From contig CP065009.1 of assembly GCA_016699755.1 (NCBI GenBank), forward strand, positions 84,937 through 148,936: DNA of 64,000 nucleotides, read 5' to 3'. Made by a program: the position numbers and the translations under genes. Positions 1,178 through 40,791 of the stretch are shown here, piece after piece. Position 1 is the stretch's first letter. Each line of letters opens with the position of its first letter. The stretch is from Candidatus Peregrinibacteria bacterium. GTDB taxonomy: Bacteria > Patescibacteriota > Gracilibacteria > CAIRYL01 > GCA-016699755. Below the pieces are notes generated by a model. It searched no databases and was not told where the DNA came from. It saw nothing but the letters and a program-made list of their open reading frames with translations.

Positions 1178-1285
1178 TTGTAGAAATCTCATCCCAAATT
1201 TTTTTTTCGTGATATAGAAGCGGTATTTTTGGAATTTTGTTATTATTTTGGTATACTTTTGATAATACCATTTTTTCCTGATTAG

Positions 1286-3136: not shown

Positions 3137-3180
3137 GATGGATACACATTTTCTGTTTACCCTTTCTTTTTTCTCCCTTC

Positions 3181-6100: not shown

Positions 6101-6315
6101 TGAAATACCGAACAATTGGTTTGTATATTATGACGCTGACTGTGGTTAAAATTCTTACTTACGATATTTGGTACAGCCTCAATGATGCTGTTTTAAGAAT
6201 TGTCGCTCTCATGTTTGTTGGAGCACTTATGATTGTTATGTCGATTCTCTATTCGAAAAAATACGAAGGGAATCTTGTTGGAGAGCTTACTTGGAAAAAT
6301 ATACTGCCGAAATAG
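3181..6315 (+). CDS. large polytopic membrane protein (DUF2339-like?)
   Basis: Start moved to the in-frame ATG at 3181 (MDSLLNKISW), because the track start at 3052 overlaps the previous gene. Roughly 25 or more hydrophobic helices follow an acidic duplicated segment. The DUF2339 resemblance is a weak recollection. Confidence 0.65.
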   Translation: MDSLLNKISWIISLFMAFIIMSFFTPFLWHMGGNVSDRILAQVIEIFILGSICKRIFLSKKSIHTALMKTKTKIPNEMENREEEIMNEPLISSKEVSFFDEEKEMKPEESVDPMENREEEIMNEPLISSKEVSFFDEEKEMKPEESVDPYDFFATKEVETDIPKSKIENLKESPAKPNMLEAFFTKNVLAKVGGILLFLGVLFLLQLVYAQLGPVGKLLIGFLIGFILYAIGVFLDRKKLTKESRVLLGTGIVITYLVIFSGRYLIGDRFADAVILSEGVTFFLLLLNTVFSVVTALVYRSNILLFFSFVFAYFIPFLIGAKAQDTPYTLLGYALLLSIGGICLHALVQKKDKDFFSYLLEIASIGGSILLLMAPFQDTHEWLIKLGAMVFLSLTVIYTAFTTGKRKNLALYFLFAYLVLAFHIGVGASVLGHLFYTGTILAGYITSLLIFFGLGVAFFLITSVLSLFFLLAVPLVILLWLVGTGFMEISFVPSLLVMSTTLYLFVFLALSKKVSALLHVGFFVILGLFAFFTNILFSWHSHYSYFGEMLSFPQAVGTVLTALLFFLLASFFSTKKGLGQLYPLGTIMSIIILLPIIQSTGNLVVVSIIGIVGLLGLNMAVPLLSKALVTEKPFNAILGLIAGVLFGAGEIYVFGTEYFPGVTLGVAFLAYAILYFVLGFLMTSSLGVHFSEEEVSPENTSKKNVILSFLGVSVSLFSLAIAFVFSKHGEIASAVWLFEASILFFFSGKLKNAKIYVGGLLLMGVGLLKLSSLILIIQAKDYLSLVPLTIIAGSLFANLKFLENDRSTSRHWHDFGHLLGLGILVALLAHIIPNTQQGWFIFGIALASIPVSYLYSKIPSGQVPIVMRALLIFFFCTHILQLNLIFISLENHHWETLKVIQYVSTFLLVGTHAFLRLAKPSAGAIFTVSLPAYLFLASTFYIYNTFQENVFVITIYWGILAFSLCGYGIQKDMVKYRTIGLYIMTLTVVKILTYDIWYSLNDAVLRIVALMFVGALMIVMSILYSKKYEGNLVGELTWKNILPK
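3412..3627 (+). repeat. perfect in-frame 2 x 108 bp tandem duplication
   Basis: atggaaaatcgagaagaagagatcatgaatgag...gttgatcca occurs at 3412..3519 and again at 3520..3627. It encodes MENREEEIMNEPLISSKEVSFFDEEKEMKPEESVDP twice. Confidence 0.9.
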
Positions 6316-6365
6316 ATTTTTTGCTCGATGCAGAGATTGTATTTTGTAATTTGAATAAAAAAAGT

Positions 6366-6394
6366 GTTCAAAAAACATGGAGTGTTTTTTGAAC
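6366..6394. promoter_or_regulatory. 12-bp perfect inverted repeat hairpin (terminator or operator)
   Basis: gttcaaaaaaca-tggag-tgttttttgaac lies between the membrane protein stop (6315) and the TrmB-like gene start (6438). There is no clear T-tail, so its role is ambiguous. Confidence 0.35.
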
Positions 6395-6437
6395 TTCACT
6401 GAAACATGTTTGCCGTTTTCCAAAAAAGTATGGAAGA

Positions 6438-7190
6438 ATGCGCTTCGTGAATCCACTTTCTGAAATTCTTGGGCTTTCTCCGCGCGACTTTTCCATTTTT
6501 CGCCTGCTTAATTCTATGGGTGCTATGCCGGCGAGTTCTATTGCGGTGCGCCTCAAAATGAATCGAACAACTGTATTTTCCGCGCTCCGCCGTCTTATTG
6601 AGAAAGGACTCGTGTATGAAATTCCCAAAGCGGGTGGAAAGTATTTTTCTGCGGTTGCTCCACGCGAAATCTTGCGTCAGGCAGAAGATCGGGTTGAGGA
6701 GGAAAAACGACGCATTCCACTTCTTTCTGCACTTGTGGAAGATCTTTCTCGTGAGCAGGGGCAATTTGGCGATCGTCCGGGAGTGTCGTTTTTTGAAGGA
6801 GAAAACGGTGTTATTTCGCTTTTTCAAAAGACACTTTCACTTGGAAAAAAACAGGAGGCATTTTTGACACTCGAAAAGATTCCCACGGAAATTCTTCGCT
6901 ATCTTATGTCGGAGTACATTTCAGAGAAGAAGCGACTTGGAGTGATGAGTCGGGTGCTTGTTCCGGCAGGGGAGCGTTCGGAAAAATATCGTCAACTCGA
7001 TGGAGAAGGAAACCGAAAAACTCGTTTTGTTCCCGAGAGTGCGGCATTTGAAACTGAGATTATTCTTTCAGATTCGTATGTAGCGCTTATCGATTTTCAT
7101 GCGCCTATTGGCGTGCTCATTGAAAGCGTCTCCATTACCACCACACTCCGTTCGGTTTTCGATTTGCTTTGGCACTCCGCAAAATTATGA
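6438..7190 (+). CDS. TrmB-family (winged-helix) transcriptional regulator
   Basis: N-terminal wHTH (LSPRDFSIFRLLNSMGAMPASSIAVRLKMNRTTVFSALRRLIEKGLVYEI), then a coiled linker and a C-terminal domain typical of TrmB-like regulators. Confidence 0.65.
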   Translation: MRFVNPLSEILGLSPRDFSIFRLLNSMGAMPASSIAVRLKMNRTTVFSALRRLIEKGLVYEIPKAGGKYFSAVAPREILRQAEDRVEEEKRRIPLLSALVEDLSREQGQFGDRPGVSFFEGENGVISLFQKTLSLGKKQEAFLTLEKIPTEILRYLMSEYISEKKRLGVMSRVLVPAGERSEKYRQLDGEGNRKTRFVPESAAFETEIILSDSYVALIDFHAPIGVLIESVSITTTLRSVFDLLWHSAKL

Positions 7191-10896: not shown

Positions 10897-13800
10897 ATGA
10901 AAAAATCGCTTATCTCCTTTTTTTTAGCAGGAATTTTTCTTTCCGGTGTTGGCTTTTTCGTTTCTTCCTTTGACGGAGAAAAGGCTGAGATACGGGGAGA
11001 TATTTTACAAAAGAATGTTGTGGAGAAAGAAAATTCTGAAAAAAATATGAGCGAATGGAAAATTTCTCTCGGAGCAGAAAATAGACAGAGCGATAAGTAT
11101 TTGTATGCCGTTAATACTTATACTCCAGATCTGCATCCACAATGTAATGAAGATAGTGATACGAATCCAAAAATAGAGACTTTTACTGTTGCAATAGAAG
11201 AATCCTCTGGGATAGGGATTCTTGCAAAAGTGAGTGATACCGATAATGAGAGGCTCCATTGGGAAATCGATTTTGGAGACTCAGCTTCTAAGTCTGGTGA
11301 TGTTACTGTTGGAAGAAAAATCCAGCCAGTCATTTTGGAAGATCAGTTTTGGGGATGTACGGACTGTTCAGGACGTACCCTTGATGCATGTGATATTGAT
11401 TCCTTCTTGGACAATAATGGCGGTGATCATTGTTATAGTATCCAAGATCCTGTTGGAATTGAGAAGTGTACTTCTGATGAAACAAGAGAGATTATTAGTG
11501 TTGATATAACACAAGGTGTTAATGGTGCGGTGGGTAGCTGTGAAGCAGATCCTCGGGTTCCAGGGACGGATGAATTTAAATATACGATCATGTGTAATAC
11601 ACCGAAGGAATTGTCTGCTACTCATACCTATCAAAAATCGGGAACATATATTGTTACGCTTACGGTAACAGATTTAGAAAAGAATAAGACTATCAAAACG
11701 AAGAGTGTGACAATTGGCGGCGATGATGATGGCGGAGACGATGATGGAGTCCCCCTCGCTGTTTCTCCTACAATTCAATCCGTTGCCGTAGGTGAAACAC
11801 CACAACAACTCAATATTTCTGGAGGAGCTGGAGTAGAGAATTACGTGTATGTTATTGATGATGCTGGGGGAACGGGTATTGGTCGAAACGCTTGTACTGA
11901 CGGAACGAATACATGTTCTTTTACAAAAGCAACTACCGAAGGCGAATTCACAATGACTGTTTCTGATGGAGGTGAATCGATTGGTGTGACTATTGAAGTT
12001 ACTGCGGATTCAGATGGTGGCACAGCATGTCACCTTTGGGAAAACGAGAGTGATATTAAAACTGGTGATATTCCCGATTCTTTTGCTTCTCCTCTTGATC
12101 ACGACAAAAAAAATACCGTTACTGTGGATTGTCAAGAAACAAGTGCGAAAGGATCTTCGGGAAATGATCCCAACAAAAGCACACATATTGTTTGGGAAAC
12201 GGCATGGATATCAAAAGGAGGAAGTGATTGGACAAAAAGCATTACACTCACCGGAGATAAGAGCCTTGACTCTGAAAATGGAAAAAAATGGTTTGTTGGT
12301 ACTGCCAATTTTTCAGAAACCTTTACAAAGGAAGAGCTTGAAGAAATTCAATATATCGCTGTCTATCAATGTGATTACAATGCTACTGATGAAAAATGGG
12401 AGGGGAGTGGTAATGGGACAAGAGCCTGCGGATGCACAAATGATGAGTGTGCAAACAGTGGATTGTGGACACTCCAAGCATTTCAAAAAGGGGCAAGAGA
12501 TGAATCAGGAGATCCTGCGATAACTATTACGGCAGATCCGACTTCTTTAAATAATTCTGGGAATACAGTGCTCAAATGGAATACAGAAAATATTGGTGCT
12601 GATTGGACATGCACAGCATCTGGAGGGGCATGGAGTGGCAAAAAAGATCCCCTCGGAGATACGACAGGAGAAAGCGTAGCGGTGAGCGAAACCACTACTT
12701 TTACCTTGACTTGTGTCCCTCCAGAAGGAACACAGGGGGTTACCGGAACTCTTCGTGTTGAGGTTTTAACAGGAGCAGATTCCCTTTTTTCTGAGTGGGG
12801 TGTTTCTACAGATCAGCCGTTTGTTGGGGACATGAACGGTGATGGTATTCCTGAAGTTGGAGTAAAACGTGGTTCTCAATGGTTTTTTGACTTCAACAAT
12901 AATGGACTTTGGGATGATTGTTCATTGGATGGATGTATTTCAAATTTCGGAACCGTTGCAGATAAACCAATTATTGGAGATTGGAACGGAGACGGAACCG
13001 ATGAAATTGGAGTTTTGCGAGATAAGCAATGGCTTCTAGATATGAATGGAAATGGGGAGTGGAACGGATGTATAACAGACAAGTGTGTAATTGATTGGGG
13101 AGTAGAATATGACGCGGTTGCGGTTGGCGACACAAATGGAGATAACATTGATGAAGTTGGAATAAAACGACGGAATAGTGAAAATACAAATGACGTATGG
13201 CGTTTTGATACGAATAATAATGGAGAATGGGACGGGTGCAGTGTTGATACGTGTTTTTCAGATTGGGGGATTCCTTTTGATACAGTATTTTTGGGGGATT
13301 GGAACGGAAACGGTTCTGACGCTATGGGGTTGAGACAAGGATCAAAATGGTTTTTGGATTTCAACAATAATGGACGCTGGGATGGATGTGAAACCGATAA
13401 ATGTTATGAAGAATGGGGACTATCAAGCGATACTCCTCTCGTAGGAGATTGGAACGAAGATGGAGCTGACGAAATTGGTGCATGGCAAAATGGACAATGG
13501 CTCTTTGATCTCAACGGGAATGGAACTTGGGATGGTGCCCCTGTTCTTACTGCCCTTCCATTGTCTCAAAACATTTCTGTTGGACAAACACCTCAATTAG
13601 TAAAAGCAAAAAGTACTTCTTCTCATCTTACTTATCAGTTTTCCTTAGATAGTGGAGGAACGGGGTTGGAGCTTGCGAGTTCTTGTCCACAATCGGGGAA
13701 TTCTGTTGCAAGTGATACCTGTGCTTTTTCTGGTTCGCCAACAGCAACAGGAACAGCAGTGCTTACCATAAAAGCAGTTCGGAGCGATGGTACAGTGGAG

Positions 13801-28543: not shown

Positions 28544-28575
28544 GTTATGAATCCCGCGCTCTTACCGACTGAGCT
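28544..28575 (-). repeat. 32-nt fragment of the tRNA(CAT) gene (tRNA positions ~9-39); putative att-type direct repeat
   Basis: gttatgaatcccgcgctcttaccgactgagct is identical to 38337..38368 in the same orientation. The flanks on both sides differ, and no T-arm or acceptor sequence is present. Confidence 0.85.
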
Positions 28576-28843
28576 GTCACTTCTAAAAAACCGAATACTC
28601 CTCTTTACATTCGGATTGGTAAAACAGGGCAGAGAGGATACAAAGGAATCTTTTGCTTTCGCTTTGCCGTTGATTTCAAGCGAAAGAGTTATATTGCAGA
28701 AAACAAAGGAGGGAAAAACTACACGGAAGAAGTTATTTTAGTAGAAAAGAAGAATCCCTTTTCAAGTGCCATTTCTGATTCTTTGGATTATAGAGAAAAG
28801 AAGGGGCTGGAATATCCCTATACAAAAGAGGAAGAAAAGATAC

Positions 28844-28874
28844 AAGAATCTCAAATGATTTCGGTTTGAAAATG
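28844..28874 (+). promoter_or_regulatory. conserved leader motif, copy A (aagaatctcaaatgatttcggtt + aaaATGact)
   Basis: The 23-nt core is identical to 35278..35300. It contains a mini-ORF, ATG ATT TCG GTT TGA, that ends 2 nt before the main ATG at 28872. Confidence 0.5.
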
Positions 28875-29453
28875 ACTCGATATTTTTTCAATACAAAGGC
28901 AACCATTGAGCAATGCAAAAGCATTTCCGTTGTAAAAATGAAGCAATGGGGATTTTTCAATGAGAAAGAAGGTTTTCGGAGTGGTTCTTTTGCTTGGGGG
29001 GATGATCAAAATAAAACAAGCGTGGGATATTCTTTTGCTTTATCGGAAAAAGAACTTCGTCTTCAGTACAGTTTTACAAATGATCTTAATGATCCAAAAG
29101 CGAAACAGGACTACAAAATACGCCTCAGCACTACCCCATGCCGTTATGGTGGGGTTCGGCATTGGATGCACTGCCCGAAGTGTGAAAGAAGAGTGGGGAA
29201 ACTTTATCTTGCGGGAAAGTATGTTTTCGCTTGTCGGCAGTGTTGGAACTTAACTTATGATATTTGCAACGCTTCAGGGTTTGAACGCATTTCAGGAAAA
29301 TGCCTTTCTTATAATGAAATTGATGAAGGGTTTGCAGGTCTCAAAAGATGGTATTACAGAGGAAAAGAGACGAAAAAACACAAAAGACTTTTAAGGCATT
29401 CGGAAAAAGGAGATCGAGCTTTTTTTCTTTTCGGAATAAAATATTGTAAATAA
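28872..29453 (+). CDS. hypothetical protein with a CxxC...CxxC zinc ribbon
   Basis: The ATG at 28872 was chosen by analogy with the second leader copy. RLSTTPCRYGGVRHWMHCPKCERRVGKLYLAGKYVFACRQCWNLTY. I recognised no family. Confidence 0.45.
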   Translation: MTRYFFNTKATIEQCKSISVVKMKQWGFFNEKEGFRSGSFAWGDDQNKTSVGYSFALSEKELRLQYSFTNDLNDPKAKQDYKIRLSTTPCRYGGVRHWMHCPKCERRVGKLYLAGKYVFACRQCWNLTYDICNASGFERISGKCLSYNEIDEGFAGLKRWYYRGKETKKHKRLLRHSEKGDRAFFLFGIKYCK

Positions 29454-29766
29454 TGGCGGTTTCTTGTCCGTCTCAATTCAGCACGCCGCCAGCGAGTGTA
29501 AGCCCCTCTCAAATTCCAGAAAAACAAAATCAAAGCAAAAGCCAGAGAAGAAGAGCAAAGGGGCGTCACTTTATACAACTTATATTCGTGCAAAGTCTCC
29601 CTTATTCTTTCAGGATTTTTGAGAAATTTCTTTATTTGTGGGTTTTTCTTTATTTTCAGAAAAAAGACTTCTGCACAATATCAGTTGTGTAAAAGCGGGT
29701 TTTACAGAGTGATCAAGGATTGGGGGTGGAATTTTTTCTTTTCTCTCGCATGAAAGGAACAAAAAA

Positions 29767-29807
29767 CCGCCCGTAACTGTACCGAGACAGTGCAGGGCGG
29801 TTTTTTT
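29767..29807 (+). terminator. Rho-independent terminator
   Basis: ccgccc-(22 nt with an inner ctgt/acag pairing)-gggcgg followed by ttttttt. A preceding aaaaaa run means it could act in both directions. Confidence 0.6.
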
Positions 29808-29911
29808 GTGGGACTTTCTGAAATGAATGAGGTTTTTTGAAGGAAAAAAAGAAAGATTTTCTCATTTTTTTTCTTTGTGTACAATTCTATGGAAAGGATT
29901 TCCCCATCACC

Positions 29912-31783
29912 ATGAAAAATACGCTTTTTGCTTTGCTTCAAAGTGTTTTAAAAAAAGATGACCGATTTTTTGCAGAAGATCGTTTTCTCAAAAATCAAGT
30001 TATTGAGTATGCTCATAAATATGATGAGCATTTAATAAAATTACTTCTTTCAAATGAAGAAATAAAAGGTTTTTTCTTTAAAGAAATTGAAAAGGCTTTA
30101 ATTTTTAATAAAGACCTTTTTGTAAAATTTGTTTCCAATAAAGAATTTTTACCAGATTCATATACGAGCTTTCGGAACAAAGTGGGCTTGGCGTGTGATG
30201 AAGAAAGCTACATAAAAGAAGTAAAGGATGTTTCACTTGTTTTTCCTTTCAAGGATTGTGTTCTTGAAGGAGGACAAACAAAAGAGGATCAATCACGACA
30301 AGAAGTTTTTCATAATCATATTCTTTCTCCTGATGAAATTTCGGTCCTTTTAAAACCAAAGGTTTTGACGAAATTCAAGAAATGGGACAAGGACGGAGCG
30401 CATGAGGATTTTGAAATAACAGAGAAGGACAATTGGATTATCAAAGGAAATAATTTGTTGGTTTTGCATAGTCTCAAGGAGCGTTTTGTGGGAAAGGTAA
30501 AACTTATTTATATTGATCCACCCTACAATACGGGAAATGATTCTTTCAAATACAATGACCGTTTTAATCATGCTTCATGGCTTGTGTTTATGAAGAATCG
30601 TTTGGAGGTGGCGAAAGAGCTTTTGAGAGAGGATGGAAGTATTTTTATTTCAATTGATGATAGCGAATTTGCTTATCTCAAAATTCTTTGTGACGAAATA
30701 TTTGGACAAGAAAATTTTTTGGCAGATATTATTTGGAACTCCACTAAGTCTGTTACGAACACAGCTATTATTTCCGAATCTCATAATCACACACTCGTAT
30801 TTTTCAAGAAAAAAGAATACTTTGTAAAAAATAGAACTGAATTTCGATTGTCTGAAGATGGCGAAGGATTTTCCAACCCTGATAATGATCCAAGGGGTCC
30901 ATGGAAGGCAGACCCATTTCAGGTTGGTGGTTGGAGACCAAATCAGCAATATGAAGTTAAAAATCCAAATACTGGAGAAATATACAAGCCAAATGAGGGG
31001 TGTAGTTGGAAAAATGATTTTCAAAAATTTCAAGAATTAGAAAAAGATGGTCGCATTGTTTTTGGTACTACTGGAGAAGCAGGACCACAAAGAAAAAGAT
31101 TTCTTTCGGAAGCACTTGAAAGAGGAAAAGTTTCTAAGACAATATGGGATGATGTCGGAACCACGACAGAAGGGACAGGGGAATTAAAAAAACTTGGATT
31201 AGGAGGACTTTTTACTTCTCCAAAACCAGAAAAACTTCTTCAAAGAATTATTGAGCTTTCAACCAAAGAAAATGATCTTGTTCTCGACTTCTTTTCTGGA
31301 AGCGGAACAACCCTTGCTGTCGCTCATAAAATGGGGAGACAATATATCGGGGTGGAACAAATGGATTATATAAAAGACCTTCCAGAAGCACGCCTTCGAA
31401 AGGTCATTGAAGGAGAACAAGGAGGAATTTCAAAAGCGGTTAATTGGCAAGGAGGAGGAAGTTTTATTTATGCAGAACTTTTTGAATGGAATGCGGAATA
31501 TGCCAGAAAAATTCAAGAAACAAAGAACTCAAAAGAACTTTTGAAACTTTGGGAAGAAATGAAGGAAAAACGGCTTTCTTTTTTGAGTGGATATTTAGAA
31601 GTGAAAAAGTTCAATGAAAATATGAAGCATTTTGAAGAATTTTCATTAGAGGAGCAAAAGGCACTTCTTATGGAATCTCTTAATCATAATTTTCTCTATA
31701 TCCCTATTTCAGAAATAGAAGATTCGGAGTATCAGATTTCAGAAGAGGACAAGAAAAAGAACTCTCAATTTTATCAAAAATAA
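29912..31783 (+). CDS. mod: type III restriction-modification methyltransferase (Mod, beta-class N6A/N4C MTase)
   Basis: In-frame ATG at 29912. Motif IV (IYIDPPYNTGND) precedes motif I (VLDFFSGSGTTLAVAHKMGRQYIGVE). The gene lies 2 nt upstream of res. Confidence 0.85.
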   Translation: MKNTLFALLQSVLKKDDRFFAEDRFLKNQVIEYAHKYDEHLIKLLLSNEEIKGFFFKEIEKALIFNKDLFVKFVSNKEFLPDSYTSFRNKVGLACDEESYIKEVKDVSLVFPFKDCVLEGGQTKEDQSRQEVFHNHILSPDEISVLLKPKVLTKFKKWDKDGAHEDFEITEKDNWIIKGNNLLVLHSLKERFVGKVKLIYIDPPYNTGNDSFKYNDRFNHASWLVFMKNRLEVAKELLREDGSIFISIDDSEFAYLKILCDEIFGQENFLADIIWNSTKSVTNTAIISESHNHTLVFFKKKEYFVKNRTEFRLSEDGEGFSNPDNDPRGPWKADPFQVGGWRPNQQYEVKNPNTGEIYKPNEGCSWKNDFQKFQELEKDGRIVFGTTGEAGPQRKRFLSEALERGKVSKTIWDDVGTTTEGTGELKKLGLGGLFTSPKPEKLLQRIIELSTKENDLVLDFFSGSGTTLAVAHKMGRQYIGVEQMDYIKDLPEARLRKVIEGEQGGISKAVNWQGGGSFIYAELFEWNAEYARKIQETKNSKELLKLWEEMKEKRLSFLSGYLEVKKFNENMKHFEEFSLEEQKALLMESLNHNFLYIPISEIEDSEYQISEEDKKKNSQFYQK

Positions 31784-31785
31784 AA

Positions 31786-34374
31786 ATGCTTTTTGAGCAA
31801 TTTGACGGCACTTTGGCAACTCTTGGAAAGAACTTTTTTAAAGAAAAAGTTCCTGAATACATTGTCAAAAATTTGAATTCAAAGTTTGAGCTTCGAGAAT
31901 ATCAAAAAGAAGCGATTGGAAGACTCTCTTTTTATCTCAATGATTATCCAGAAAAGACTGAACCGACCCACCTTCTCTTTAATATGGCTACGGGAAGCGG
32001 AAAAACGCTTATAATGGCATCATCTCTTCTTTTTTTATATGAACAAGGGTATCGGAACTTTATTTTTTTTGTGAATAGCACGAACATTATTAAAAAGACA
32101 CAAGATAACTTTCTCAATTCCCAAAGCTCTAAATACCTCTTCTCACAAAAGATTGAGCAGAGCGGAAAAGAAATTACCATTCGAGAAGTAGAAAATTTTG
32201 AAAGCGCAAATTCAGAAAACATTAATATTGTTTTTACGACTATTCAAGGGCTTCATCGCCAATTGAATGAACCACGAGAAAATGCCCTTACTTATGAAGA
32301 CTTTGAAGAGCAAAAAATTGTTCTCATTTCAGATGAAGCACACCATATAAACGCCTTCACGAAAAAAGGAAAACTTCAAAAAACAGAAGAGGAAGAAAAA
32401 GCTTCATGGGAAGGAACCGTGCGGAGAATTTTTGAGGCAGACCCTCGCAATATCCTTTTAGAATTTACCGCAACTATTGACCTGAGAAACGACGAAATTT
32501 TAAAAAAATACGAAGATAAAATTCTCTTTCGCTATGATCTCAAGAAATTTCGAGAAGAGCTCTTTTCCAAAGAAATTGAGATTTTACAAGGGGACTTAGA
32601 ACCCATTGACCGAGCTTTGCAAGCGGTCGTTTTGAGCCATTACCGAAGAAAAGTAGCAGAAAAAAATGGAATTTTTTGTAAGCCCGTTGTTTTGATGAAG
32701 GCAAAGGATATTAAGGCTTCAGAGTCTTTTGAAGAAGAATTTTCCGTAAAAATAAAAGCTCTCAAAATTTCTGATCTAAAAGCGATTCAAAGCAGAGACA
32801 ATAGAACCATTCAAAAAGCCTTTGCATATTTTGAAGCCAATGATATTTCTTTGGAAAATCTTTTAAGTGAGATACAAGAAGAGTTCGGAAAAGAGCGGTG
32901 TGTTTCCGTAAATTCAAAAAATGAAAGTGAGGAAAAACAGCTTCTTGTCAATTCGCTTGAAGATCAAAACAACGAAATTCGAGTGGTCTTTGCCGTGGAC
33001 AAGCTCAATGAAGGGTGGGATGTTCTCAATCTCTTTGATATTGTTCGACTCTATGAAACGCGAGACAGCGGAAAACAAATCGGAAAAACAACCATGGCAG
33101 AAGCGCAACTCATTGGACGCGGAGCAAGATATTTTCCTTTTCAGAGAAAAGGAACAGAAGAAGATCGATTTAAGAGAAAATTTGATGAAGACATAAGAGA
33201 GGAGCTTCGTATCCTTGAACAGCTTTATTATCACAGCAAGGATGATAGCAAATATATTTCTGAGCTCAATCGAGCACTTATTGAAATTGGGATAAAGTCA
33301 GAACGAGCAAAGGAATTTTATTTAAATATCAAAGAGGATTTTCAAAAGGGACCATTTTGGAACTCTGGCGTTATTTTTACCAATCAAAGAGTAGAAAATG
33401 GATCAAAAGACATTTCTTCTTTTGCAGATGCAAAAATCCCAAAAGACTTTGAATATACTCTGCGGACAGAAGGAATGAATGAAGAAGAAGTTTTTTCCAA
33501 TAAATTGGAAATGAAAAAGGATATAGCAACACAAATAAAATCTTTTGATCTCTTGGATTTTGAAGAAAATCTTTTACGAAGTATTTTGGGAAAATACAGT
33601 TTTTTTTCTTATAAAAATCTCAAGAGCCGATATTTGGGAAACATAGGCTCTTTGAACGAATTTCTTTTTTCTGAAAAGTATTTGGGCGGTGTACGAATAA
33701 AAATCACGGGGAGAAGTGAAAAATTGTTAAATTTAACCATCCGAGAAAAGAAAAAAGCATTGCATCATGTTCTTCAAAAAATAGAATCTCATCTCAAAAC
33801 AAATACACCAGAATATATTGGAACCAATCTTTTTCGAGCCAAACAAGTAAAAGATGTTTTTAAAGACAAAGTTTTGAGACTGGACGCCGAAAGTGAGCGA
33901 GCGCAATTTATGGAAAATTTTGATTTTCATGCTTGCGACTGGTACGCACAAACAGAGCTTCATGGAACAAGTGAAGAAGAGGCACTTTTACTCTTTATCC
34001 AGAGTTTTATTGATGAACTCAAAAAAAAATACGAAGGGGTGTATTTGGTCCGAAATGAGCGATTTTTCACTCTTTATACTTTTTCAGAAGGAAGAGCCTT
34101 TGAGCCTGATTTTATTCTTTTTTTAGAAGATAAAAGCCAAGAAAAAAAAGTTCAAGCGTATCAAATTTTCATTGAACCAAAAGGAAAGCATTTGATAAAA
34201 GAAGATCAGTGGAAAGAAGACTTTTTGAAAGAAATTGAAGAAAACTATGAGGTGGACTATAAAACTGAAACAAAAGATTTTAAACTAATAGGATTGCCAT
34301 TTTTTAATAAAGAACAAGAAAAACATACTCATGAATTTGAAAATACTATAAGAGAACAGCTTTCTTTGTTTTAA
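31786..34374 (+). CDS. res: type III restriction enzyme Res subunit (SF2 helicase plus PD-ExK nuclease)
   Basis: REYQKEAI, Walker A (MATGSGKT), DEAH (LISDEAHH), and a C-terminal EPDF...IEPKG nuclease motif. Confidence 0.85.
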   Translation: MLFEQFDGTLATLGKNFFKEKVPEYIVKNLNSKFELREYQKEAIGRLSFYLNDYPEKTEPTHLLFNMATGSGKTLIMASSLLFLYEQGYRNFIFFVNSTNIIKKTQDNFLNSQSSKYLFSQKIEQSGKEITIREVENFESANSENINIVFTTIQGLHRQLNEPRENALTYEDFEEQKIVLISDEAHHINAFTKKGKLQKTEEEEKASWEGTVRRIFEADPRNILLEFTATIDLRNDEILKKYEDKILFRYDLKKFREELFSKEIEILQGDLEPIDRALQAVVLSHYRRKVAEKNGIFCKPVVLMKAKDIKASESFEEEFSVKIKALKISDLKAIQSRDNRTIQKAFAYFEANDISLENLLSEIQEEFGKERCVSVNSKNESEEKQLLVNSLEDQNNEIRVVFAVDKLNEGWDVLNLFDIVRLYETRDSGKQIGKTTMAEAQLIGRGARYFPFQRKGTEEDRFKRKFDEDIREELRILEQLYYHSKDDSKYISELNRALIEIGIKSERAKEFYLNIKEDFQKGPFWNSGVIFTNQRVENGSKDISSFADAKIPKDFEYTLRTEGMNEEEVFSNKLEMKKDIATQIKSFDLLDFEENLLRSILGKYSFFSYKNLKSRYLGNIGSLNEFLFSEKYLGGVRIKITGRSEKLLNLTIREKKKALHHVLQKIESHLKTNTPEYIGTNLFRAKQVKDVFKDKVLRLDAESERAQFMENFDFHACDWYAQTELHGTSEEEALLLFIQSFIDELKKKYEGVYLVRNERFFTLYTFSEGRAFEPDFILFLEDKSQEKKVQAYQIFIEPKGKHLIKEDQWKEDFLKEIEENYEVDYKTETKDFKLIGLPFFNKEQEKHTHEFENTIREQLSLF

Positions 34375-34378
34375 GATA

Positions 34379-34876
34379 ATGACTACAGCAAATTATGACA
34401 ATGCAAAATCAAAGGCACTTGATCTTCTCAGGCTCTATGATATTCAAGAACCGATTGTTCCTGTTTTTGATATTGCGAAACAAGAAGGACTCAAAATTTC
34501 TTTTTTTACTCCAGAATCAGCAGAACTCAAAGAAATTTCGGGTATACTTCAAGAAGACACCAAAACAATATTTATCAATTCCAGTGACTCTCCTCAAAGA
34601 CAAGTTTTTACCGTTGCTCATGAGCTGGGGCATTGGACAATGAAACACAAAAGAAAAGATGAAGTTCTCTATCGAATGAGTAGTATTATTACAAAAGACC
34701 CCCAAGAACAAGAAGCAAATTGCTTTGCCAGTCATCTCTTGGTCCCAAAGGAATTTTTAGAAAAAAAGATAAATGAATTTAGCCTTAATATAAATGATAC
34801 TGCTATTCTGGCAAAGCTCTTTGGAGTCTCCGAAGAAATGATTCAATACCGTATAAAATCATTTTCCTATGAGTAA
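34379..34876 (+). CDS. ImmA/IrrE-family zinc metallopeptidase (DUF955/COG2856-like)
   Basis: HEXXH motif (VAHELGHWTMKH), a downstream EQEANCFASHLLVP, and a small 165-aa size. No HTH domain and no adjacent Xre gene. Confidence 0.8.
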   Translation: MTTANYDNAKSKALDLLRLYDIQEPIVPVFDIAKQEGLKISFFTPESAELKEISGILQEDTKTIFINSSDSPQRQVFTVAHELGHWTMKHKRKDEVLYRMSSIITKDPQEQEANCFASHLLVPKEFLEKKINEFSLNINDTAILAKLFGVSEEMIQYRIKSFSYE

Positions 34877-35279
34877 AGATAATTTCAAAAAAATATTGGA
34901 GAAGGTGATGGAATCAATTTCTCTTTCTGATGAGAAAAATATTACCTTGGGTTTGAATGATGAAAGAAAAAAAGTTGAGAAAGAAAAAACAATTATCGAA
35001 AGTTTAGAAAAAGAAAAACAAAAAAAAGAACAGGAAATAAGACACCAAGAAAGAAAGGATGTTCTCGATATGAGAAAAATATGGTCAATTTGGCTTTTAC
35101 GCCTTATTTGGCTTATTGCTCTTTTTGATATGGGCATTGTTCTTGGGTATGGTTTCCAATATCTTACTTTTGACAATGAAAGTTTTGTAGCAATTATTAT
35201 AGGGGAAAATCTCTTAAAAATTGCAGGATTGGCTTTTATAGTCGTCAAATTCTTATTTAATGGGAAAAGTACAAAGTAA
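34869..35279 (+). CDS. hypothetical coiled-coil protein with two C-terminal TM helices
   Basis: 136-aa ORF overlapping the ImmA-like gene by 8 nt. Lys/Glu-rich N-terminal half, then IWSIWLLRLIWLIALFDMGIVLGYGF and FVAIIIGENLLKIAGLAFIVVKFLF. Confidence 0.5.
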   Translation: MSKDNFKKILEKVMESISLSDEKNITLGLNDERKKVEKEKTIIESLEKEKQKKEQEIRHQERKDVLDMRKIWSIWLLRLIWLIALFDMGIVLGYGFQYLTFDNESFVAIIIGENLLKIAGLAFIVVKFLFNGKSTK

Positions 35280-35308
35280 GAATCTCAAATGATTTCGGTT
35301 AAAAAATG
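35278..35308 (+). promoter_or_regulatory. conserved leader motif, copy B
   Basis: It has the same 23-nt core as 28844..28866. The mini-ORF ATG ATT TCG GTT AAA AAA TGA has a stop that overlaps the main ATG at 35306 (ATGA). Confidence 0.5.
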
Positions 35309-36418
35309 ACTAACTTTCAAATAGAATTGGCAGAACCAGAAAAGCTCTTTCTTGTGTATTACTCTCTTTTTTATCACAAAAGAAAAGAATGGAATGAAAA
35401 TCTCAAAGGAAAGTATATTTATTTTGATGGAATCGTGAGAGGATGTATTGCAAGTGATGAAATCAAAAAATATTTGGAAGAGTTATATGAAGAAGAAATT
35501 TTGACTTCCTTTTATGTTTGGGATTACAAAATAGAAAAGAAGGAAGATGTTGATAAACTTTTTTTTATAGGTAAAAAAAAGCCAAAAGGGCTTTTAGAAG
35601 ACATAGGCTTTCTCAAAATATTTCCTGATATAGGTGGATATGGCGATTTTAAGCATTATGATTTATATGCGGAAATAAATGAAGAAAAAGCAGAACAATA
35701 TATTTCTGAATATCTTGAGAAGTGGAAAAAAAATGATCTTTATTTCACGGAATTCAATATTTTACGAAAAGAAAAGCAAATTGAGATGGTCGTCCAAGAT
35801 ATTTTTTCCATTATCAAAAATCATTCTCATACAAACTTCCTGATTCATTCAACGAGGATGAGCATAGGGGATGAAATGGATTTTGTTGCGACTGTTCTTT
35901 TTTTGCAAAGCGTAGGAGATATTCATATTTCTGGATTCTTTTCCAAAGGTACTAGGTATTACTCTTCTGAAAAAGAAACAATTCATTTCCGCATTACCCT
36001 TACCGAAAAATTCTTTGAAGACTTTACCTACAGCCAAAAATCAGGACTTGTCCATTTTGATTTTAAAGAACTGACCACAAAGGAAAAATACGAAAAAATA
36101 TTCTTTGACGCTCCCTACAGGATCTGGATAAACAAAACAGAATACCGAATGAACAAAGGAAAGTTTCCGTATGAACTTATGAATGCCTCCTTTGATGATA
36201 TGGCAATAAAAAGCGTTCCAATAGACGAATTAAAAACATTAATGAAACTGGAAGAAAAAGGCATCCAAAAAGGAATTGATAACTTCAGAATAACTCTGAG
36301 AGATAAATTTTCTTTCCCTGCAAATGAGCTCTTTTTCTCGGTACAAGATGGAGAAATAACCCTAAATCCAAAAATATTCAAAAAAAGGGAAAAAAAGGAA
36401 GAAATAGAAAAGAAATAG
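35306..36418 (+). CDS. hypothetical protein (370 aa), possible C-terminal OmpR/CadC-like winged helix
   Basis: Long ORF with coding-like composition. The tail ...FPYELMNASF...IDELKTLM...GIDNFRITLRDKF...ELFFSVQDGEITL resembles the Trans_reg_C pattern. This is weak, by eye only. Confidence 0.45.
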   Translation: MTNFQIELAEPEKLFLVYYSLFYHKRKEWNENLKGKYIYFDGIVRGCIASDEIKKYLEELYEEEILTSFYVWDYKIEKKEDVDKLFFIGKKKPKGLLEDIGFLKIFPDIGGYGDFKHYDLYAEINEEKAEQYISEYLEKWKKNDLYFTEFNILRKEKQIEMVVQDIFSIIKNHSHTNFLIHSTRMSIGDEMDFVATVLFLQSVGDIHISGFFSKGTRYYSSEKETIHFRITLTEKFFEDFTYSQKSGLVHFDFKELTTKEKYEKIFFDAPYRIWINKTEYRMNKGKFPYELMNASFDDMAIKSVPIDELKTLMKLEEKGIQKGIDNFRITLRDKFSFPANELFFSVQDGEITLNPKIFKKREKKEEIEKK

Positions 36419-36650
36419 GAATATTCTTAGGATTGCTCCTTTGTCAGAATAGGAGCATGAAAAAGCAAGCAGAAACCTCAATCAGAGAAACGGCATTCAG
36501 CACCTTTGAATTCTCCTGTCATTACCCCGAAGAAAACCCCATAGGAGCAGAAAAAGACATTGCTCATGTTCTCTCTCATGTAGGCGTTTTTGATACTTTG
36601 AAAAAAAATCAATCTTGATACCAAAATTCATTTGGGATACAGTACCCCCG

Positions 36651-38321
36651 ATGAAAGCATTTCCAAGTGAAAACAGCGGAAAAAGAAGAGTCGCCATTTA
36701 TATTCGTGTCTCAACTGCCGAACAAAAAATAGAAGGATACAGCCTTGAGGCACAACGGAAAAAACTCCTCGATTATGTGAATAATAACACTGCTCTCAAT
36801 CTCACTACAAAAGAAGAGTGGATTTTTACCGATACCCACACAGGAAGTGATCTTGTGCGTCCACAACTGGAAAAACTCAGAGAAGGAGTCCGAGAAAGAA
36901 AATTTGACGCGGTTTTGGTTTGGAAGATTGACCGCCTTTCTCGAAGCCTCAAGCACCTCCTCATGATGTTTGAAGAAATGGAAAAGCATGATGTCAGCTT
37001 TATTTCAGTACAAGAAAACATTGATTTCAAGGGTCCTATTGGAAAATTGATTTTTCAAATATTCGGAGCCATTGCCCAATTTGAACGGGAACTCATAAAA
37101 GGAAGAACACAAATGGGAAAAATCGCTTCAGCAGAAATGGGAAACTATACAGGAAATTCTATTCCTTATGGATATGAAGCCGTAAAAAATAAAAGTGGAA
37201 GAGGAAAGCGTCTCAAAATTATTCCACAAGAAAAGGAATGGGTTGAAAAGATGTATCAATGGTCAATTTATGAAGAAATGGGACTTGGACAAATTACCAA
37301 TCGCCTGAATACCCTTGGAGTTCCGAGAGGAAATCAAACAAAAGAAAAAAGCTTTCTTTGGACAGAAAAAATTGTCAGAAATATTCTCTCGAACCCAATC
37401 TACAGAGGGGAATTTGTAGCAAATAGGAAAGATGAAAATGGAAGAATTCTTCCTGAAGACAAGTGGACAGTGGTGGAAATTCCTCCTTGTGTCTCTGAAT
37501 TTACCTTTCAGCAAGCTCAGAATGCCCGTGGAGACCGAAAGGGAAGTGGAGCCGAGACAGACTACCTCTTGAGCGGAAAAATCAAAGACATGGGTCTTAA
37601 AAAGCCAAAGTCATTTGTTGGAAAAAAACGCTCAGATCATGCTTATTCTTACGCCAGAAAACAGTTTAAAGAAAAAGACGGAACGCCCCACCCTGTTTTT
37701 GAGATTCCTGCCAAACAAATTGAAGAATATGTTTGGGGAAAGATTATGGAAGCCATGCAAAATCCAGAAACTTTTATCAAAACCTACCTTTCTCAAGAAT
37801 ATTCTCAAAAAACCAGTATCGTCCAAATTGAAGAAGAAATTTCCCTCTTGCGAGAAAAGAAGGTGAATGTGGAAATGAATATATCCAGAATTGAAAATGC
37901 TTTTGAGAATGGAACTTATTCAGAAGAAAAAATGACAAAAAGAATTATGGAGAAGGAAGAAGAAATGAATCGAATTGAAGACGGCATACAAGAAAAAGAA
38001 GATAAACTTATTTTCTTAAGTTCTCTTGATATTGAAGTGGAAAAGCTCAAGAGTGCTTCAGAAGAAGTAAAATACCGACTGGAAAATTTGACCCCAAAAC
38101 AAAAGAAAATTCTCTGTAATTTGTTTGTTGATCGGATTGAAATGAATCGAACAAGGGAAGGTTCAAGATGGAAAGTAAGTGCGGAAATCTTCTTTCGGTT
38201 CAACCCTCAGAAGTTTAACAAGGGGAGTGAGGAGGGTAGAACTGGGGAAGACCTTGAAGAAAACGAAAAAAAGACTTCCTCGGAAGAAAAAGCCTTGAAT
38301 GGTGCCACGGGGCGGATTTGA
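36651..38321 (+). CDS. large serine recombinase (integrase)
   Basis: ATG at 36651. RVAIYIRVSTAEQ carries the catalytic Ser. Also DAVLVWKIDRLSRS and FGAIAQFERELIKGRT, then a recombinase domain and a coiled coil. The stop lies inside the tRNA gene. Confidence 0.85.
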   Translation: MKAFPSENSGKRRVAIYIRVSTAEQKIEGYSLEAQRKKLLDYVNNNTALNLTTKEEWIFTDTHTGSDLVRPQLEKLREGVRERKFDAVLVWKIDRLSRSLKHLLMMFEEMEKHDVSFISVQENIDFKGPIGKLIFQIFGAIAQFERELIKGRTQMGKIASAEMGNYTGNSIPYGYEAVKNKSGRGKRLKIIPQEKEWVEKMYQWSIYEEMGLGQITNRLNTLGVPRGNQTKEKSFLWTEKIVRNILSNPIYRGEFVANRKDENGRILPEDKWTVVEIPPCVSEFTFQQAQNARGDRKGSGAETDYLLSGKIKDMGLKKPKSFVGKKRSDHAYSYARKQFKEKDGTPHPVFEIPAKQIEEYVWGKIMEAMQNPETFIKTYLSQEYSQKTSIVQIEEEISLLREKKVNVEMNISRIENAFENGTYSEEKMTKRIMEKEEEMNRIEDGIQEKEDKLIFLSSLDIEVEKLKSASEEVKYRLENLTPKQKKILCNLFVDRIEMNRTREGSRWKVSAEIFFRFNPQKFNKGSEEGRTGEDLEENEKKTSSEEKALNGATGRI

Positions 38322-38376
38322 ACCGCCGACCTCGGGGTTATGAATCCCGCGCTCTTACCGACTGAGCTACCGTGGC
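38300..38376 (-). tRNA. tRNA with CAT anticodon (Met, or Ile2 if lysidine-modified)
   Basis: The reverse complement GCCACGGTAGCTCAGTCGGTAAGAGCGCGGGATTCATAACCCCGAGGTCGGCGGTTCAAATCCGCCCCGTGGCACCA folds as a cloverleaf. G1-C72 is paired, so it is not an initiator type. CCA is encoded. Confidence 0.85.
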
Positions 38377-38426
38377 AAAAAACGGATTTCATGCTATCAT
38401 GCTCTTGAGAAATTGCCAAGCATACC

Positions 38427-38924
38427 ATGTTTTCTCCTCTCTCTCTCGGTACTCACCAATCTTTTCCTGTTTTTTTACCACAAACACCAGTGCTTTTTTC
38501 TGGCACTCTTCTTACTCTACGAGATGGAACGCTCCGAACTCTTTTTTCTGAAAAAGAAGGGAAGTCCGATTTTTTACGAGGAGCAGTAATCTATTTTTGC
38601 GGTCCAACGCCTCCTCCCCTTGGAAAGCCTATTGGTTCGTGTGGTCCCACAACAAGTTCGCGTATGGAACCGTTTTTTCCAAATCTTATTTCTGCCGGAG
38701 TGCATGGCATTTTGGGAAAAGGGGAAATTTCAACGGCTTCTTCTAAGCTTCTTGCAGAGCACAATATTCCTTATTTTGGTGTGGTGGGTGGTATTGGTGC
38801 GTTTCTTGCTGAATGCGTGGAATCTGCTCATATCCTTGCTCTTCCCGAGCTTGGTGCAGAAGCGGTGTGGGAACTTACAGTAAAGAATTTTCCAGCGATT
38901 GCCCTGCCGTATCATTGTGAGTAG
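38427..38924 (+). CDS. Fe-S hydro-lyase beta subunit (class I fumarate hydratase / tartrate dehydratase C-terminal domain)
   Basis: GAVIYFCGPTPPPLGKPIGSCGPTTSSRMEPFFPNLISAGVHGILGKG...YFGVVGGIGAFLA...ELGAEAVWELTVKNFPAI. Confidence 0.7.
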   Translation: MFSPLSLGTHQSFPVFLPQTPVLFSGTLLTLRDGTLRTLFSEKEGKSDFLRGAVIYFCGPTPPPLGKPIGSCGPTTSSRMEPFFPNLISAGVHGILGKGEISTASSKLLAEHNIPYFGVVGGIGAFLAECVESAHILALPELGAEAVWELTVKNFPAIALPYHCE

Positions 38925-39480
38925 GTGGTTTTTTTTGAAGCCAGTCAGAAAGTTTTGTTTCGAGTTGAGGAAAAATATCATTCTGAAGCTTTTCCTGTTC
39001 TTCTTCCGAAAAATTTGAAAGAACAAATGTAGATGTATTAATTCCGTGTTCTGAGCGAAGCATAGTATCAACTCCTATTTTGAGGCGTGCGACATTCTCT
39101 GATCCCAAGAGATTTATAATATCTTTTATGCCATTATGCCCTCCAGAACTCCCTTTTTCTCGAAAGCGAATGTTTCCAAAGAACTGATCTTTATCATCAA
39201 AAATAATGAGAATGTCTTTTATGGGAATTTTCCAAAATTGCTGTGCGGCGAGCACAGATTTTCCCGAAAGATTCATAAAAGTTTCGGGGAGGAGGAAGCA
39301 GATCTTATCTAAGCAGAGTGGAGATACTCCTTCGGTTATGCTCCCGAAAAGTTTTTTTTGTTCCCGAAACTCTGGAAAATTCCATTTTTTTTGGAGAAAC
39401 TTTGCCGTCATCCATCCAACATTGTGTCGGGTATGTTCATATTTTTTGCCGGGGTTTCCGAGGAAGACAATGAGTTTCAT
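38875..39480 (-). CDS. pth: peptidyl-tRNA hydrolase
   Basis: In-frame ATG at 39480. MKLIVFLGNPGKKYEHTRHNVGWM..., then GSSGGHNGIKDI. Confidence 0.85.
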   Translation of the reverse strand: MKLIVFLGNPGKKYEHTRHNVGWMTAKFLQKKWNFPEFREQKKLFGSITEGVSPLCLDKICFLLPETFMNLSGKSVLAAQQFWKIPIKDILIIFDDKDQFFGNIRFREKGSSGGHNGIKDIINLLGSENVARLKIGVDTMLRSEHGINTSTFVLSNFSEEEQEKLQNDIFPQLETKLSDWLQKKPPTHNDTAGQSLENSLL

Positions 39481-39528
39481 GAGCAATACACATACTATCA
39501 TATTCCCTCAAAAATCGTGTAGCTACTG

Positions 39529-40791
39529 TTACGCTTTTCGTAGCGCATCAATCGGATTCATTTTTGCGGCTTTTCCTGCTGGGGCATAACCAAATACCAG
39601 TCCAACTCCAGCGGAAATCCCAATTCCTAAGACAATAGAAGAGGTGGGGAGAATAAAAGGCCAATCAAAAGTAAAGAGGTGCGCTACAACACTCACGAGG
39701 TAGGCAATACTGCTTCCGAGTCCTATTCCCAAAAATCCTCCCAAGAGACAAATAATAATCGATTCCGAAAGGAACTGAAACCGAATGGCAAATGGACTGG
39801 CACCAATTGCTTTTTTAAGTCCAATTTCTGAGGTTCGTTCTGTGACCGCTACATACATAACATTCATAATTCCTACGCCACCAACAACAAGCGAAATACA
39901 GGCAATGGAGAAAAGGAGGAGAGAGATGCCATTTGTTACGGTATTAATAATATCCATTGATTGGTCCATTGTGCGTACGACAAAATCATCTTTGTCTGGA
40001 TTTTTAATTCCATGGTTTTTTCGAAGAACACGTTCTGCTTGTGAAACCGTTGTGCTCAGAAGCTGTCGGTTTTTCATTTTGAGTCCGATAGCATTGACGT
40101 GATTTTGTCCGAGAATTTTCTTTTGTGCTGTTTTTATGGGGAGATATACAAAATCGTCTACTGTCATAAAGAACTTGAGTCCCATTTCTTCTGCAACGCC
40201 GATAACTCGAAAGTTTTTTTCGCCCATACGAATGTTCTGTCCTACAGCAGGAGAATCTCCGTAGAGCTCCTTTTTTATTCCACTTCCCAGTACTACAACT
40301 TGTGCGAGGGATTCATTTTCTTTTGGTGTAAAAAATCGTCCTTCCGAGAATGTTAAATTTTCTGTGGTAGCATATTCTGTATTTGTTGCCCAAAAGGTAG
40401 CTCGTTTTTCCGTTCCTTTGTGGGTAAATTTTTCTTGTCCCATAGCAAGAGTATAGCCTGTCTCTATGTTAGAAAGTTTGAGGAGACTATCTTTATCACC
40501 TGTGGTGAGGGTGGTAATTTGTATTCCAGTGACGAGGGCTTGTCCTGAAGTGCGGTCTTTTTCTGCACGACTTCCACGACTTGGTACCTGCACTTCAATC
40601 CATATTGTTTCTGGAGTAATACTTGCAATTTGATTCAAAATAAGCGCTCGTACGCCGGCGCCAACAGAGAGAACAATAATAACAATGGCAGTTCCTACTA
40701 TAATTCCAAGCGCAGTGAGCGCACTTCTCCCTGGGCTATTCCGAAGTGCCTTGAGTGAAAGCCGTAAAATTCCAAAGATGAGTCGTATCAT
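39529..40791 (-). CDS. ABC transporter permease, MacB/FtsX type
   Basis: N-terminal TM helix, a large extracytoplasmic domain, and a C-terminal FtsX-like 3-TM bundle (ERTSEIGLKKAIGAS). Confidence 0.8.
   Translation of the reverse strand: MIRLIFGILRLSLKALRNSPGRSALTALGIIVGTAIVIIVLSVGAGVRALILNQIASITPETIWIEVQVPSRGSRAEKDRTSGQALVTGIQITTLTTGDKDSLLKLSNIETGYTLAMGQEKFTHKGTEKRATFWATNTEYATTENLTFSEGRFFTPKENESLAQVVVLGSGIKKELYGDSPAVGQNIRMGEKNFRVIGVAEEMGLKFFMTVDDFVYLPIKTAQKKILGQNHVNAIGLKMKNRQLLSTTVSQAERVLRKNHGIKNPDKDDFVVRTMDQSMDIINTVTNGISLLLFSIACISLVVGGVGIMNVMYVAVTERTSEIGLKKAIGASPFAIRFQFLSESIIICLLGGFLGIGLGSSIAYLVSVVAHLFTFDWPFILPTSSIVLGIGISAGVGLVFGYAPAGKAAKMNPIDALRKA

Follow-up and report, generated by a model that had tools for sequence, protein, structure and literature searches.

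We analysed a 64,000-nt stretch of contig CP065009.1 (positions 84,937 to 148,936; assembly GCA_016699755.1) from a Candidatus Peregrinibacteria bacterium, which is called the window below. It contains a defence island of ~9.7 kb that, with a probability of roughly 0.8, owes its place at the encoded CCA end of a host tRNA-Met(CAT) gene to insertion by a serine recombinase of its own. The island would span about 28621-38303 (9,683 bp), and the comparison of related islands points strongly to TGG(T), which is the tRNA CCA end in reverse complement, as the place of the crossover. The body of the tRNA would thereby have remained host-derived and intact. An earlier note on this DNA had described an accessory island at a tRNA gene with a recombinase of the serine type, which is unusual since tyrosine integrases are classical at such sites, and this description was supported by our analysis.

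The proposed integration target is an intact tRNA-Met(CAT) gene at 38300-38376 on the minus strand, which was identified with ARAGORN and Rfam (71 bits) and which we take as host DNA. A promoter-like site (TTGGCA-17-TAGCAT with TG; 38391-38419, minus strand) lies upstream of the tRNA, on the host side.

Predicted crossover site and ends of the island

The placement of the island ends rests on attL/attR pairs from nine related islands in other genomes of the candidate phyla radiation (CPR). These pairs have only TGG(T/A)N in common, while a conserved right arm follows the core at attL; the islands measure 7.6-11.3 kb, a range into which the 9,683-bp period of the window fits. The nine-island comparison places the attR core of the window at the TGGT of 38300-38303 (plus strand), at the encoded CCA end, and, together with the in-frame recombinase tail described below, it places the attL core at the TGGT of 28617-28620 (plus strand; reverse complement of A73-CCA), to within about ±10 nt. 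The window accordingly reads ...cattcggat-TGGT-aaaacagggcagagaggatac at attL and ...gccttgaa-TGGT-gccacgg at attR. Under crossover at the CCA end, the expected empty site is ...CATTCGGAT-TGGT-GCCACGG... (in fuller form, attB ...ACATTCGGAT-TGGT-GCCACGGGGCGG...) and the expected attP is ...CCTTGAA-TGGT-AAAACAGGG... (in fuller form ...AAAGCCTTGAA-TGGT-AAAACAGGGCAGAG...).

The left ends of three related islands (L010, L172 and L173) read TGGTGAG..AAGG..GTTAC directly after a reverse-complement terminator hairpin. A left-end profile matched the window at 28630-28805 (nhmmer, E-value 4e-7) and also matched L005, L007, L013, L019 and L038; at L007 the match coincides exactly with an independently found 15-nt direct repeat across the tRNA 3' end. 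The window has a terminator-like hairpin with an 8-pair stem and a TTTTTT tail directly outside attL (28581-28614, minus strand), and the order of hairpin and then TGGT also occurs at attL of L010 and L173. There is thus a strong case that this hairpin is the native tRNA terminator, which the insertion would have displaced by 9.7 kb to the far (attL) side. A second terminator-like hairpin with a T-run lies just downstream of the tRNA (38271-38296, minus strand), antisense within the 3' coding region of the recombinase, and its position is suggestive of a replacement terminator brought by the island. A lenient scan for such antisense terminators was positive in 25 of 27 relatives, but also in 43% of the control windows.

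Direct repeats of at least 12 nt were found at only three of 41 related loci (L007, L010 and L054), long repeats being rare because the cores measure only 4-5 nt. At L010 two older attL remnants in tandem, which lie 170-340 nt upstream of the mapped attL, repeat the last 17 nt of the tRNA. This locus has three tandem attL-like units (1503-1519, 1676-1692 and 1844), each consisting of a hairpin and then a tRNA 3'-end core, and these have the look of relics left by one integration after another at the same tRNA-Ile. At L054 a 33-nt fragment of a tRNA-Arg 3' half (positions 45-77; 11639-11671) lies between the recombinase and the intact tRNA, and 10.8 kb upstream there is a 17-nt repeat with TGG as its last bases. 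Searches for short repeats near homologues of the Zn-ribbon-like gene at the left end of the island were uninformative. In recombinase copies that seem to be un-integrated, as they have no tRNA beside them, the recombinase is followed by no more than TGGTG and about 7-12 tRNA-like bases.

The recombinase and its apparently severed tail

The recombinase gene (36651-38321, plus strand) encodes 556 amino acids in what would be the integrated, truncated form, with Pfam matches to Resolvase (130 bits) and Recombinase (64 bits). Its open reading frame (ORF) stops 22 nt inside the tRNA gene, and these last 22 nt (GGT GCC ACG GGG CGG ATT TGA) are the antisense of the tRNA acceptor and T arm. When the island ends are joined at TGG, the recombinase frame stays open for a further 39-83 codons at 10 of 10 junctions (nine loci plus the window); in the window it continues for 83 codons past attL. 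The reconstructed tails, of 40-80 residues, have a common motif (G..G..GY..F.F...FKK......EEVYL.E), and natural uninterrupted long forms of 584-612 amino acids from a public collection carry the same tail. The tail reconstructed for L013 is in places nearly identical to that of one such natural long form, P0025. A hidden Markov model of the tail, built without the window, gave one match among 1469 six-frame pieces of the window, in the plus frame at 28573-28866 (E-value 8e-10).

The severed 3' part of the recombinase thus appears to form the attP right arm at 28621-28869 (plus strand), which encodes the conserved tail GYKGIFCFRFAVDFKRKSYIAENKGGKNYTEEVILVE...; the long form would stop at the TGA of 28867-28869, overlapping the start of the next gene. 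Since the frame stays open with a conserved tail and long forms exist, the free element should encode a longer enzyme. From this we infer that attP lies inside the recombinase ORF and that integration truncates the integrase. The long enzyme of the free element would have a disordered linker and, at its end, the conserved beta-hairpin tail, while in the integrated state the ORF would be cut at the Gly codon GGT and completed by six residues and a TGA from the tRNA acceptor and T-arm antisense. The earlier note had suggested that the left end may be eroded and the element immobilised; this was not supported, as attL keeps its right arm and the recombinase frame continues there for 83 codons. 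The truncation may alter the activity of the enzyme.

Except in one region, the enzyme is a true member of the large serine recombinases. The RVSTxEQ motif with the nucleophilic serine is invariant in 22-40 relatives, all family-invariant residues including the catalytic ones are kept, and the TP901-1 catalytic domain was matched with an E-value of 6e-21. An AlphaFold (AF2) model of the long-form relative P0025, with a mean predicted local distance difference test score of 78, has a beta domain, a long helical hairpin, a disordered linker (residues 520-559) and a confidently predicted beta hairpin for the tail. With Foldseek, 546-620 columns of this model aligned to the full-length SPbeta, PhiC31 and Bxb1 integrases (E-values 1e-21 to 1e-16). 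The exception is the zinc-ribbon region, for which there was no PF13408 match and where the stretch YLLSGK...FVGKKR...YSYARKQF lacks Cys in both the window and the family consensus. This Cys-free region (residues about 300-345) is found clade-wide, and the predicted fold is still integrase-like.

A paralogue of the recombinase with 89% identity is encoded elsewhere on the same 1.56-Mb contig and, as read from its C terminus, abuts a different tRNA. Recent activity is implied by this pair, because so similar a paralogue sits at another tRNA in the same genome. In IMG/VR there was no relative of the recombinase with more than 34% identity.

Relatives of the recombinase at tRNA genes

A scan for relatives, limited to one genome per species, yielded 80 loci. 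Among relatives of at least 32% identity with enough downstream sequence, 46 of 57 had a convergent tRNA gene within 300 nt downstream of the recombinase. All 46 of these tRNA genes start with TGG on the recombinase strand, i.e. with the encoded CCA, and together they represent 21 anticodons. Below 32% identity a convergent tRNA was present in one of 10 relatives, and the background chance of one, estimated from the other tRNAs in the same loci, is ~0.5%. Clade members belong mostly to Peregrinibacteria, Gracilibacteria and other Patescibacteria.

At a typical locus the ORF and the tRNA overlap by exactly 22 nt, and the stop is the TGA in the T-loop antisense TTGAAC. The C-terminal Gly (GGT) is invariant because the ORF enters the tRNA antisense and stops at this T-loop TGA. 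In a second group the ORF extends over 52-58 nt of the tRNA and terminates in the D-arm antisense; ten loci (L021, L045, L046, L051, L053, L056, L057, L060, L061 and L064) have 58 nt of antisense, with the stop at GCTCTAA/G in the D-arm antisense.

The CAT tRNAs at the window island and at two related loci (L004, 8004-8080; L011, 5357-5433) have in common an A31·C39 mismatch at the base of the anticodon stem and a G1-C72 pair, and because of these features they are not of the initiator type; they may be elongator Met or Ile2 tRNAs. The same tRNA-Met with two compensatory T-stem changes and different flanks is present on a Joint Genome Institute metagenome contig (L084, Ga0055456_10065314; 132-208), where it has no island beside it and presents an unoccupied TGGT site in a relative. 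The protein in the L084 flank had no homologues, and the L084 context, sought as a second tRNA-Met locus, does not occur in the window.

The 32-nt repeat and the left boundary

A perfect 32-mer, GTTATGAATCCCGCGCTCTTACCGACTGAGCT, had been taken in the earlier note as the boundary of the island. The repeat as such was confirmed: the window holds exactly two copies, in direct orientation, at 28544-28575 and 38337-38368 as read on the plus strand (minus strand in the sense of the tRNA). No further copy with up to three mismatches was found in the window, where the chance expectation is 0; the 32-mer is not widespread, and it is not present in IMG/VR. It corresponds to raw tRNA positions 9-40, namely the D arm, the 5' anticodon stem, the anticodon loop and one further base, and the identity stops abruptly at both edges. 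The right copy lies inside the tRNA. As the boundary or att core of the island the repeat was displaced by the comparison above, which puts the crossover at the CCA end and the left copy 41 nt outside the island, beyond the displaced terminator. The left copy, which has no homology to the left ends of related islands, is probably a host-side orphan fragment of tRNA-Met (positions 9-40) rather than an att site. Its sole role would be that of a substrate for homologous deletion, in which both the island and the tRNA 3' half would be lost.

Two simple origins of the left copy were rejected. It does not look like the remnant of a decayed tRNA copy, as the 44 nt to its left aligned to the tRNA 3' half no better than shuffled sequences or random genomic windows, and no second copy of the tRNA 3' end with up to three mismatches was found in the whole window. 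Nor does it belong to a simple tandem duplication, and no other locus has a comparable mid-tRNA repeat. To the right of each 32-mer (28576-28596 and 38369-38388), AAAAAAC(C/G)GA(A/T)T follows after 8-9 unrelated bases; this likeness may be due to chance or may be a trace of older homology.

Assembled sequence from other samples bears on whether the 32-mers could nevertheless bound the island. Three runs of one study yielded Logan contigs that match the window flanks with 99.6-99.9% identity. Four of them end or begin at window positions 28573 and 38339, precisely the points at which the 32-mer forces a branch in a k=31 de Bruijn graph. In one further contig (L002, 99.7% identical to the window) the left flank leads via a single 32-mer directly to the right flank, with the junction ...TAGTGGCGC-32mer-ACCGTGGC.... 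This junction could be either a true deletion between the 32-mers or a collapse in the k=31 assembly. A true deletion would have lost the island, the terminator and the tRNA 3' half, a loss that the cell could bear only with a redundant tRNA. The island may also be missing altogether from the three Logan runs, because its proteins have no mates of at least 90% identity; the distance between the 32-mers would then be only 78 nt, and no island would be needed to explain the contig breaks.

If the 32-mers did bound the island, attP would carry tRNA positions 9-77 and recombination within positions 9-40 would restore the tRNA by joining a 5' stub of the host to a 3' half carried by the island, so that excision would leave a truncated tRNA. 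The perfect and sharp-edged repeat, the joining of the outer flanks via one 32-mer in L002 and the reach of the recombinase ORF into the tRNA 3' half are in line with this scenario. We nonetheless consider it improbable, since in every mapped relative the crossover is at the CCA end and the core measures 4-17 nt, the attP right arm and the in-frame tail begin 41 nt to the right of the repeat, and a tRNA-type terminator lies between the repeat and the TGGT. Moreover, a circle excised at the 32-mers would contain one site of the attL kind and one of the attR kind, a functional tRNA would be missing from the empty site, and L002 is equally well explained by homologous deletion or by a collapsed k=31 repeat node.

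Several observations weigh against insertion at the CCA end. The sole "empty" allele seen, L002, joins the flanks via the 32-mer and not via TGGT, and at face value it favours the 32-mers as boundaries; the origin of the left 32-mer is also left without explanation by crossover in TGGT. Dyad symmetry in the reconstructed attP, attB, attL and attR was no better than in shuffled sequences. The right arm of the window is the most diverged of the set and has a 3-codon insertion, and the junction could lie about 10 nt further to the right, at the GG of 28628. Finally, no attP or attB junction was seen for the window island, so that its current mobility is conjectural. Excision may still occur.

A further explanation concerns the repeat only and is compatible with insertion at the CCA end: the 32-mer pair would be a scar left by an earlier event at this tRNA that had nothing to do with the island now present. 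Such an event might have been the visit of an earlier element with a long tRNA mimic, a partial tandem duplication of the tRNA or a rearrangement, and L002 would then be a RecA-type deletion. We rate this slightly better than even. The left copy lies in the host flank beyond the terminator, tandem att remnants occur at the related loci L010 and L054, and the locus is a synteny breakpoint (see below). On the other hand, no other fragment of an older element and no second tRNA copy was detectable, perfect identity over 32 nt between unrelated flanks is hard to reach by decay, and among 41 loci no other showed a mid-tRNA repeat.

In a related species (L087/L088), whose FumB-like protein is 77% identical, the gene order is TruB, aminotransferase, FumB and Pth, and FumB is not preceded by a tRNA. 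In the window, TruB and FumB are separated by 30 kb (7952-38433) that hold mainly housekeeping genes and no aminotransferase. Because of these 30 kb that are extra to the order in the related species, the tRNA-Met locus marks a breakpoint in synteny. It is speculation that such rearrangements may arise when CCA-end islands at different tRNAs recombine with each other.

Gene content and origin of the island

All genes of the island lie on the plus strand, and its interior has a G+C content of 30-36%, compared to 40-45% in the flanks. Both the one-strand layout, with a Zn-ribbon protein, type III mod/res, an ImmA-like protein, two further proteins and a serine recombinase, and the A/T-rich interior had been described in the earlier note and were seen again here.

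The backbone of the island consists of four genes. At the left end, a Cys-rich, Zn-ribbon-like protein of 195 amino acids (28872-29453) has homologues in L010, L013, L055 and L060, and its gene adjoins the mapped attL in L010 as well as in the window. A 370-amino-acid protein (35306-36418) is conserved beside the recombinase, with tblastn matches in L010, L012, L013 and L030. Directly upstream of the recombinase lies a small ORF of ~53 amino acids with the motifs HYPEENP and GVFDGI (36457-36618), which has the same position in about 20 related loci and is a candidate regulator or directionality factor. The recombinase itself is the fourth.

The cargo comprises a type III restriction-modification system, a metalloprotease and a small protein. 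The Mod protein (29837-31783; Pfam N6_N4_Mtase and TypeIII_RM_meth; PADLOC MTase_III, 591 bits) is an N6/N4 methyltransferase with the type III domain, and it is encoded beside a helicase-type Res protein (31786-34374; Pfam ResIII; PADLOC REase_III, 485 bits), as is expected for a type III system. The adjacent gene (34379-34876) encodes, by its family matches, an ImmA/IrrE (M78) CapP-like metalloprotease, which may be cargo or a regulator. It is followed by a 136-amino-acid protein (34869-35279) with a hydrophobic C-terminal stretch that, read by eye from the translation, has the look of a membrane-spanning segment. The Zn-ribbon-like, 136-amino-acid and 370-amino-acid proteins and the small ORF matched no family in Pfam, NCBIfam, PHROGs or PADLOC. 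Cargo varies among related islands, and that of L173 consists of a type IIG enzyme and an Mrr-like nuclease.

Virion structural, packaging or lysis genes, as expected of a prophage, were not found; in PHROGs, with five proteins scanned, only the integrase and the metalloprotease gave matches. Between the island ends there is no tyrosine recombinase, the sole recombinase being of the serine type.

A foreign origin of the island is suggested by its low G+C content, by the related species, which has neither the island nor the tRNA at this place, and by the lack of cluster mates of at least 90% identity for the island proteins among about 15 billion proteins. Exact-protein look-ups for the recombinase (with two start codons), its paralogue P0002, an ATP-binding cassette (ABC) permease, ImmA and Res found none of them on record, and because of this the island junctions could not be read in other samples. 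One could picture an old, fixed and immobile remnant with a decayed or domesticated recombinase: junction reads or circular forms were not found, and the island proteins are unique at 90% identity. Such a remnant is, in our view, quite unlikely, as the recombinase retains all family-invariant residues, the severed tail is open for 83 codons and fits the family profile, the composition is still foreign, and the 89% paralogue sits at another tRNA in the same genome.

Beyond the island, three features of the surroundings were noted. A stretch that is not in the related species (1159-6441) encodes a thrombospondin-type-3-repeat protein and a 1087-amino-acid DUF2339 membrane protein, and sits between pilin-like genes and a TrmB-like gene. 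Conversely, the related species has a small ParE-like toxin pair between Pth and a MacB-type permease (L087, 11182-11746), which is missing at 39501-39529 of the window. The FumA-C/TtdB-like gene (38427-38924, plus strand) and the peptidyl-tRNA hydrolase gene (38875-39501, minus strand) are convergent and overlap by 50 nt (38875-38924).

Relation to known systems

Like PhiC31, Bxb1, TP901-1, A118, SPbeta SprA and CcrAB, the recombinase has a resolvase domain with the Ser, a recombinase domain and a beta-rich domain with a coiled coil, and it would use a short att core; as in known large serine integrases, the int gene would adjoin attP. It differs from them in that the target is the tRNA CCA end, with 21 anticodons across the clade, in that the zinc-ribbon Cys are missing, and in that attP would lie within the ORF so that integration removes the tail. 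With islands of the Islander type, which use tyrosine integrases, the window island has in common that it abuts a functional tRNA, that the integrase is tRNA-proximal, that the cargo is defence-related and that the size is ~10 kb. The Islander signature, in contrast, includes a displaced tRNA 3' fragment, whereas here the enzyme is of the serine type, the duplicated core is about 4-5 nt, and the only tRNA fragment is internal (positions 9-40) and lies 41 nt outside attL.

A parallel to an att site inside a serine integrase gene is provided by streptococcal integrative and conjugative elements in rumA, where attR is located within the integrase gene and the integrase of the excised form differs in length and C terminus (PMC4701971). 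Those elements are conjugative and have a protein-coding target, and they are not known to have a conserved severed tail. Tyrosine integrases use longer cores and prefer RNA genes according to a 2026 survey (PMC13626063), and it was stated in 2015 that serine integrases do not target tRNA genes. A large serine recombinase is given for 27 of 937 elements in a preprint on tycheposons.

Truncation by integration is also part of the integration-dependent immunity of the mycobacteriophages BPs and Brujita, where attP lies in a phage gene and integration at a tRNA-associated attB truncates the product and alters its behaviour. There the truncated gene encodes the repressor and the integrase is a tyrosine recombinase, whereas here the integrase itself would be truncated, with a possible functional consequence. 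In the literature covered, which is incomplete, we found no description of a clade of serine integrases that targets tRNA genes.

Implications

A broader proposal, which we hold tentatively and somewhat on the doubtful side of even, is that a large CPR clade of serine integrases crosses over at the universal CCA end and that the location of attP within the ORF is a built-in switch of activity, directionality or stability. Integration would then swap the beta-hairpin tail for six residues encoded by the tRNA antisense. If this is true, crossover at the CCA end would let closely related integrases settle on almost any tRNA gene. Serine integrases are favoured as genome-engineering tools, and a near-universal target motif beside conserved tRNA sequence, together with a C terminus that is rewritten by integration, could inform the engineering of target range and the control of directionality.

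For the textbook view, in which tRNA islands are the domain of tyrosine integrases, the clade described here is a populous group of serine enzymes that does likewise at the CCA end. CCA cores that are common to many tRNAs could drive chromosomal rearrangements, and in lineages from which little mobile DNA is known, small defence islands of this kind may rank among the main channels of gene flux.

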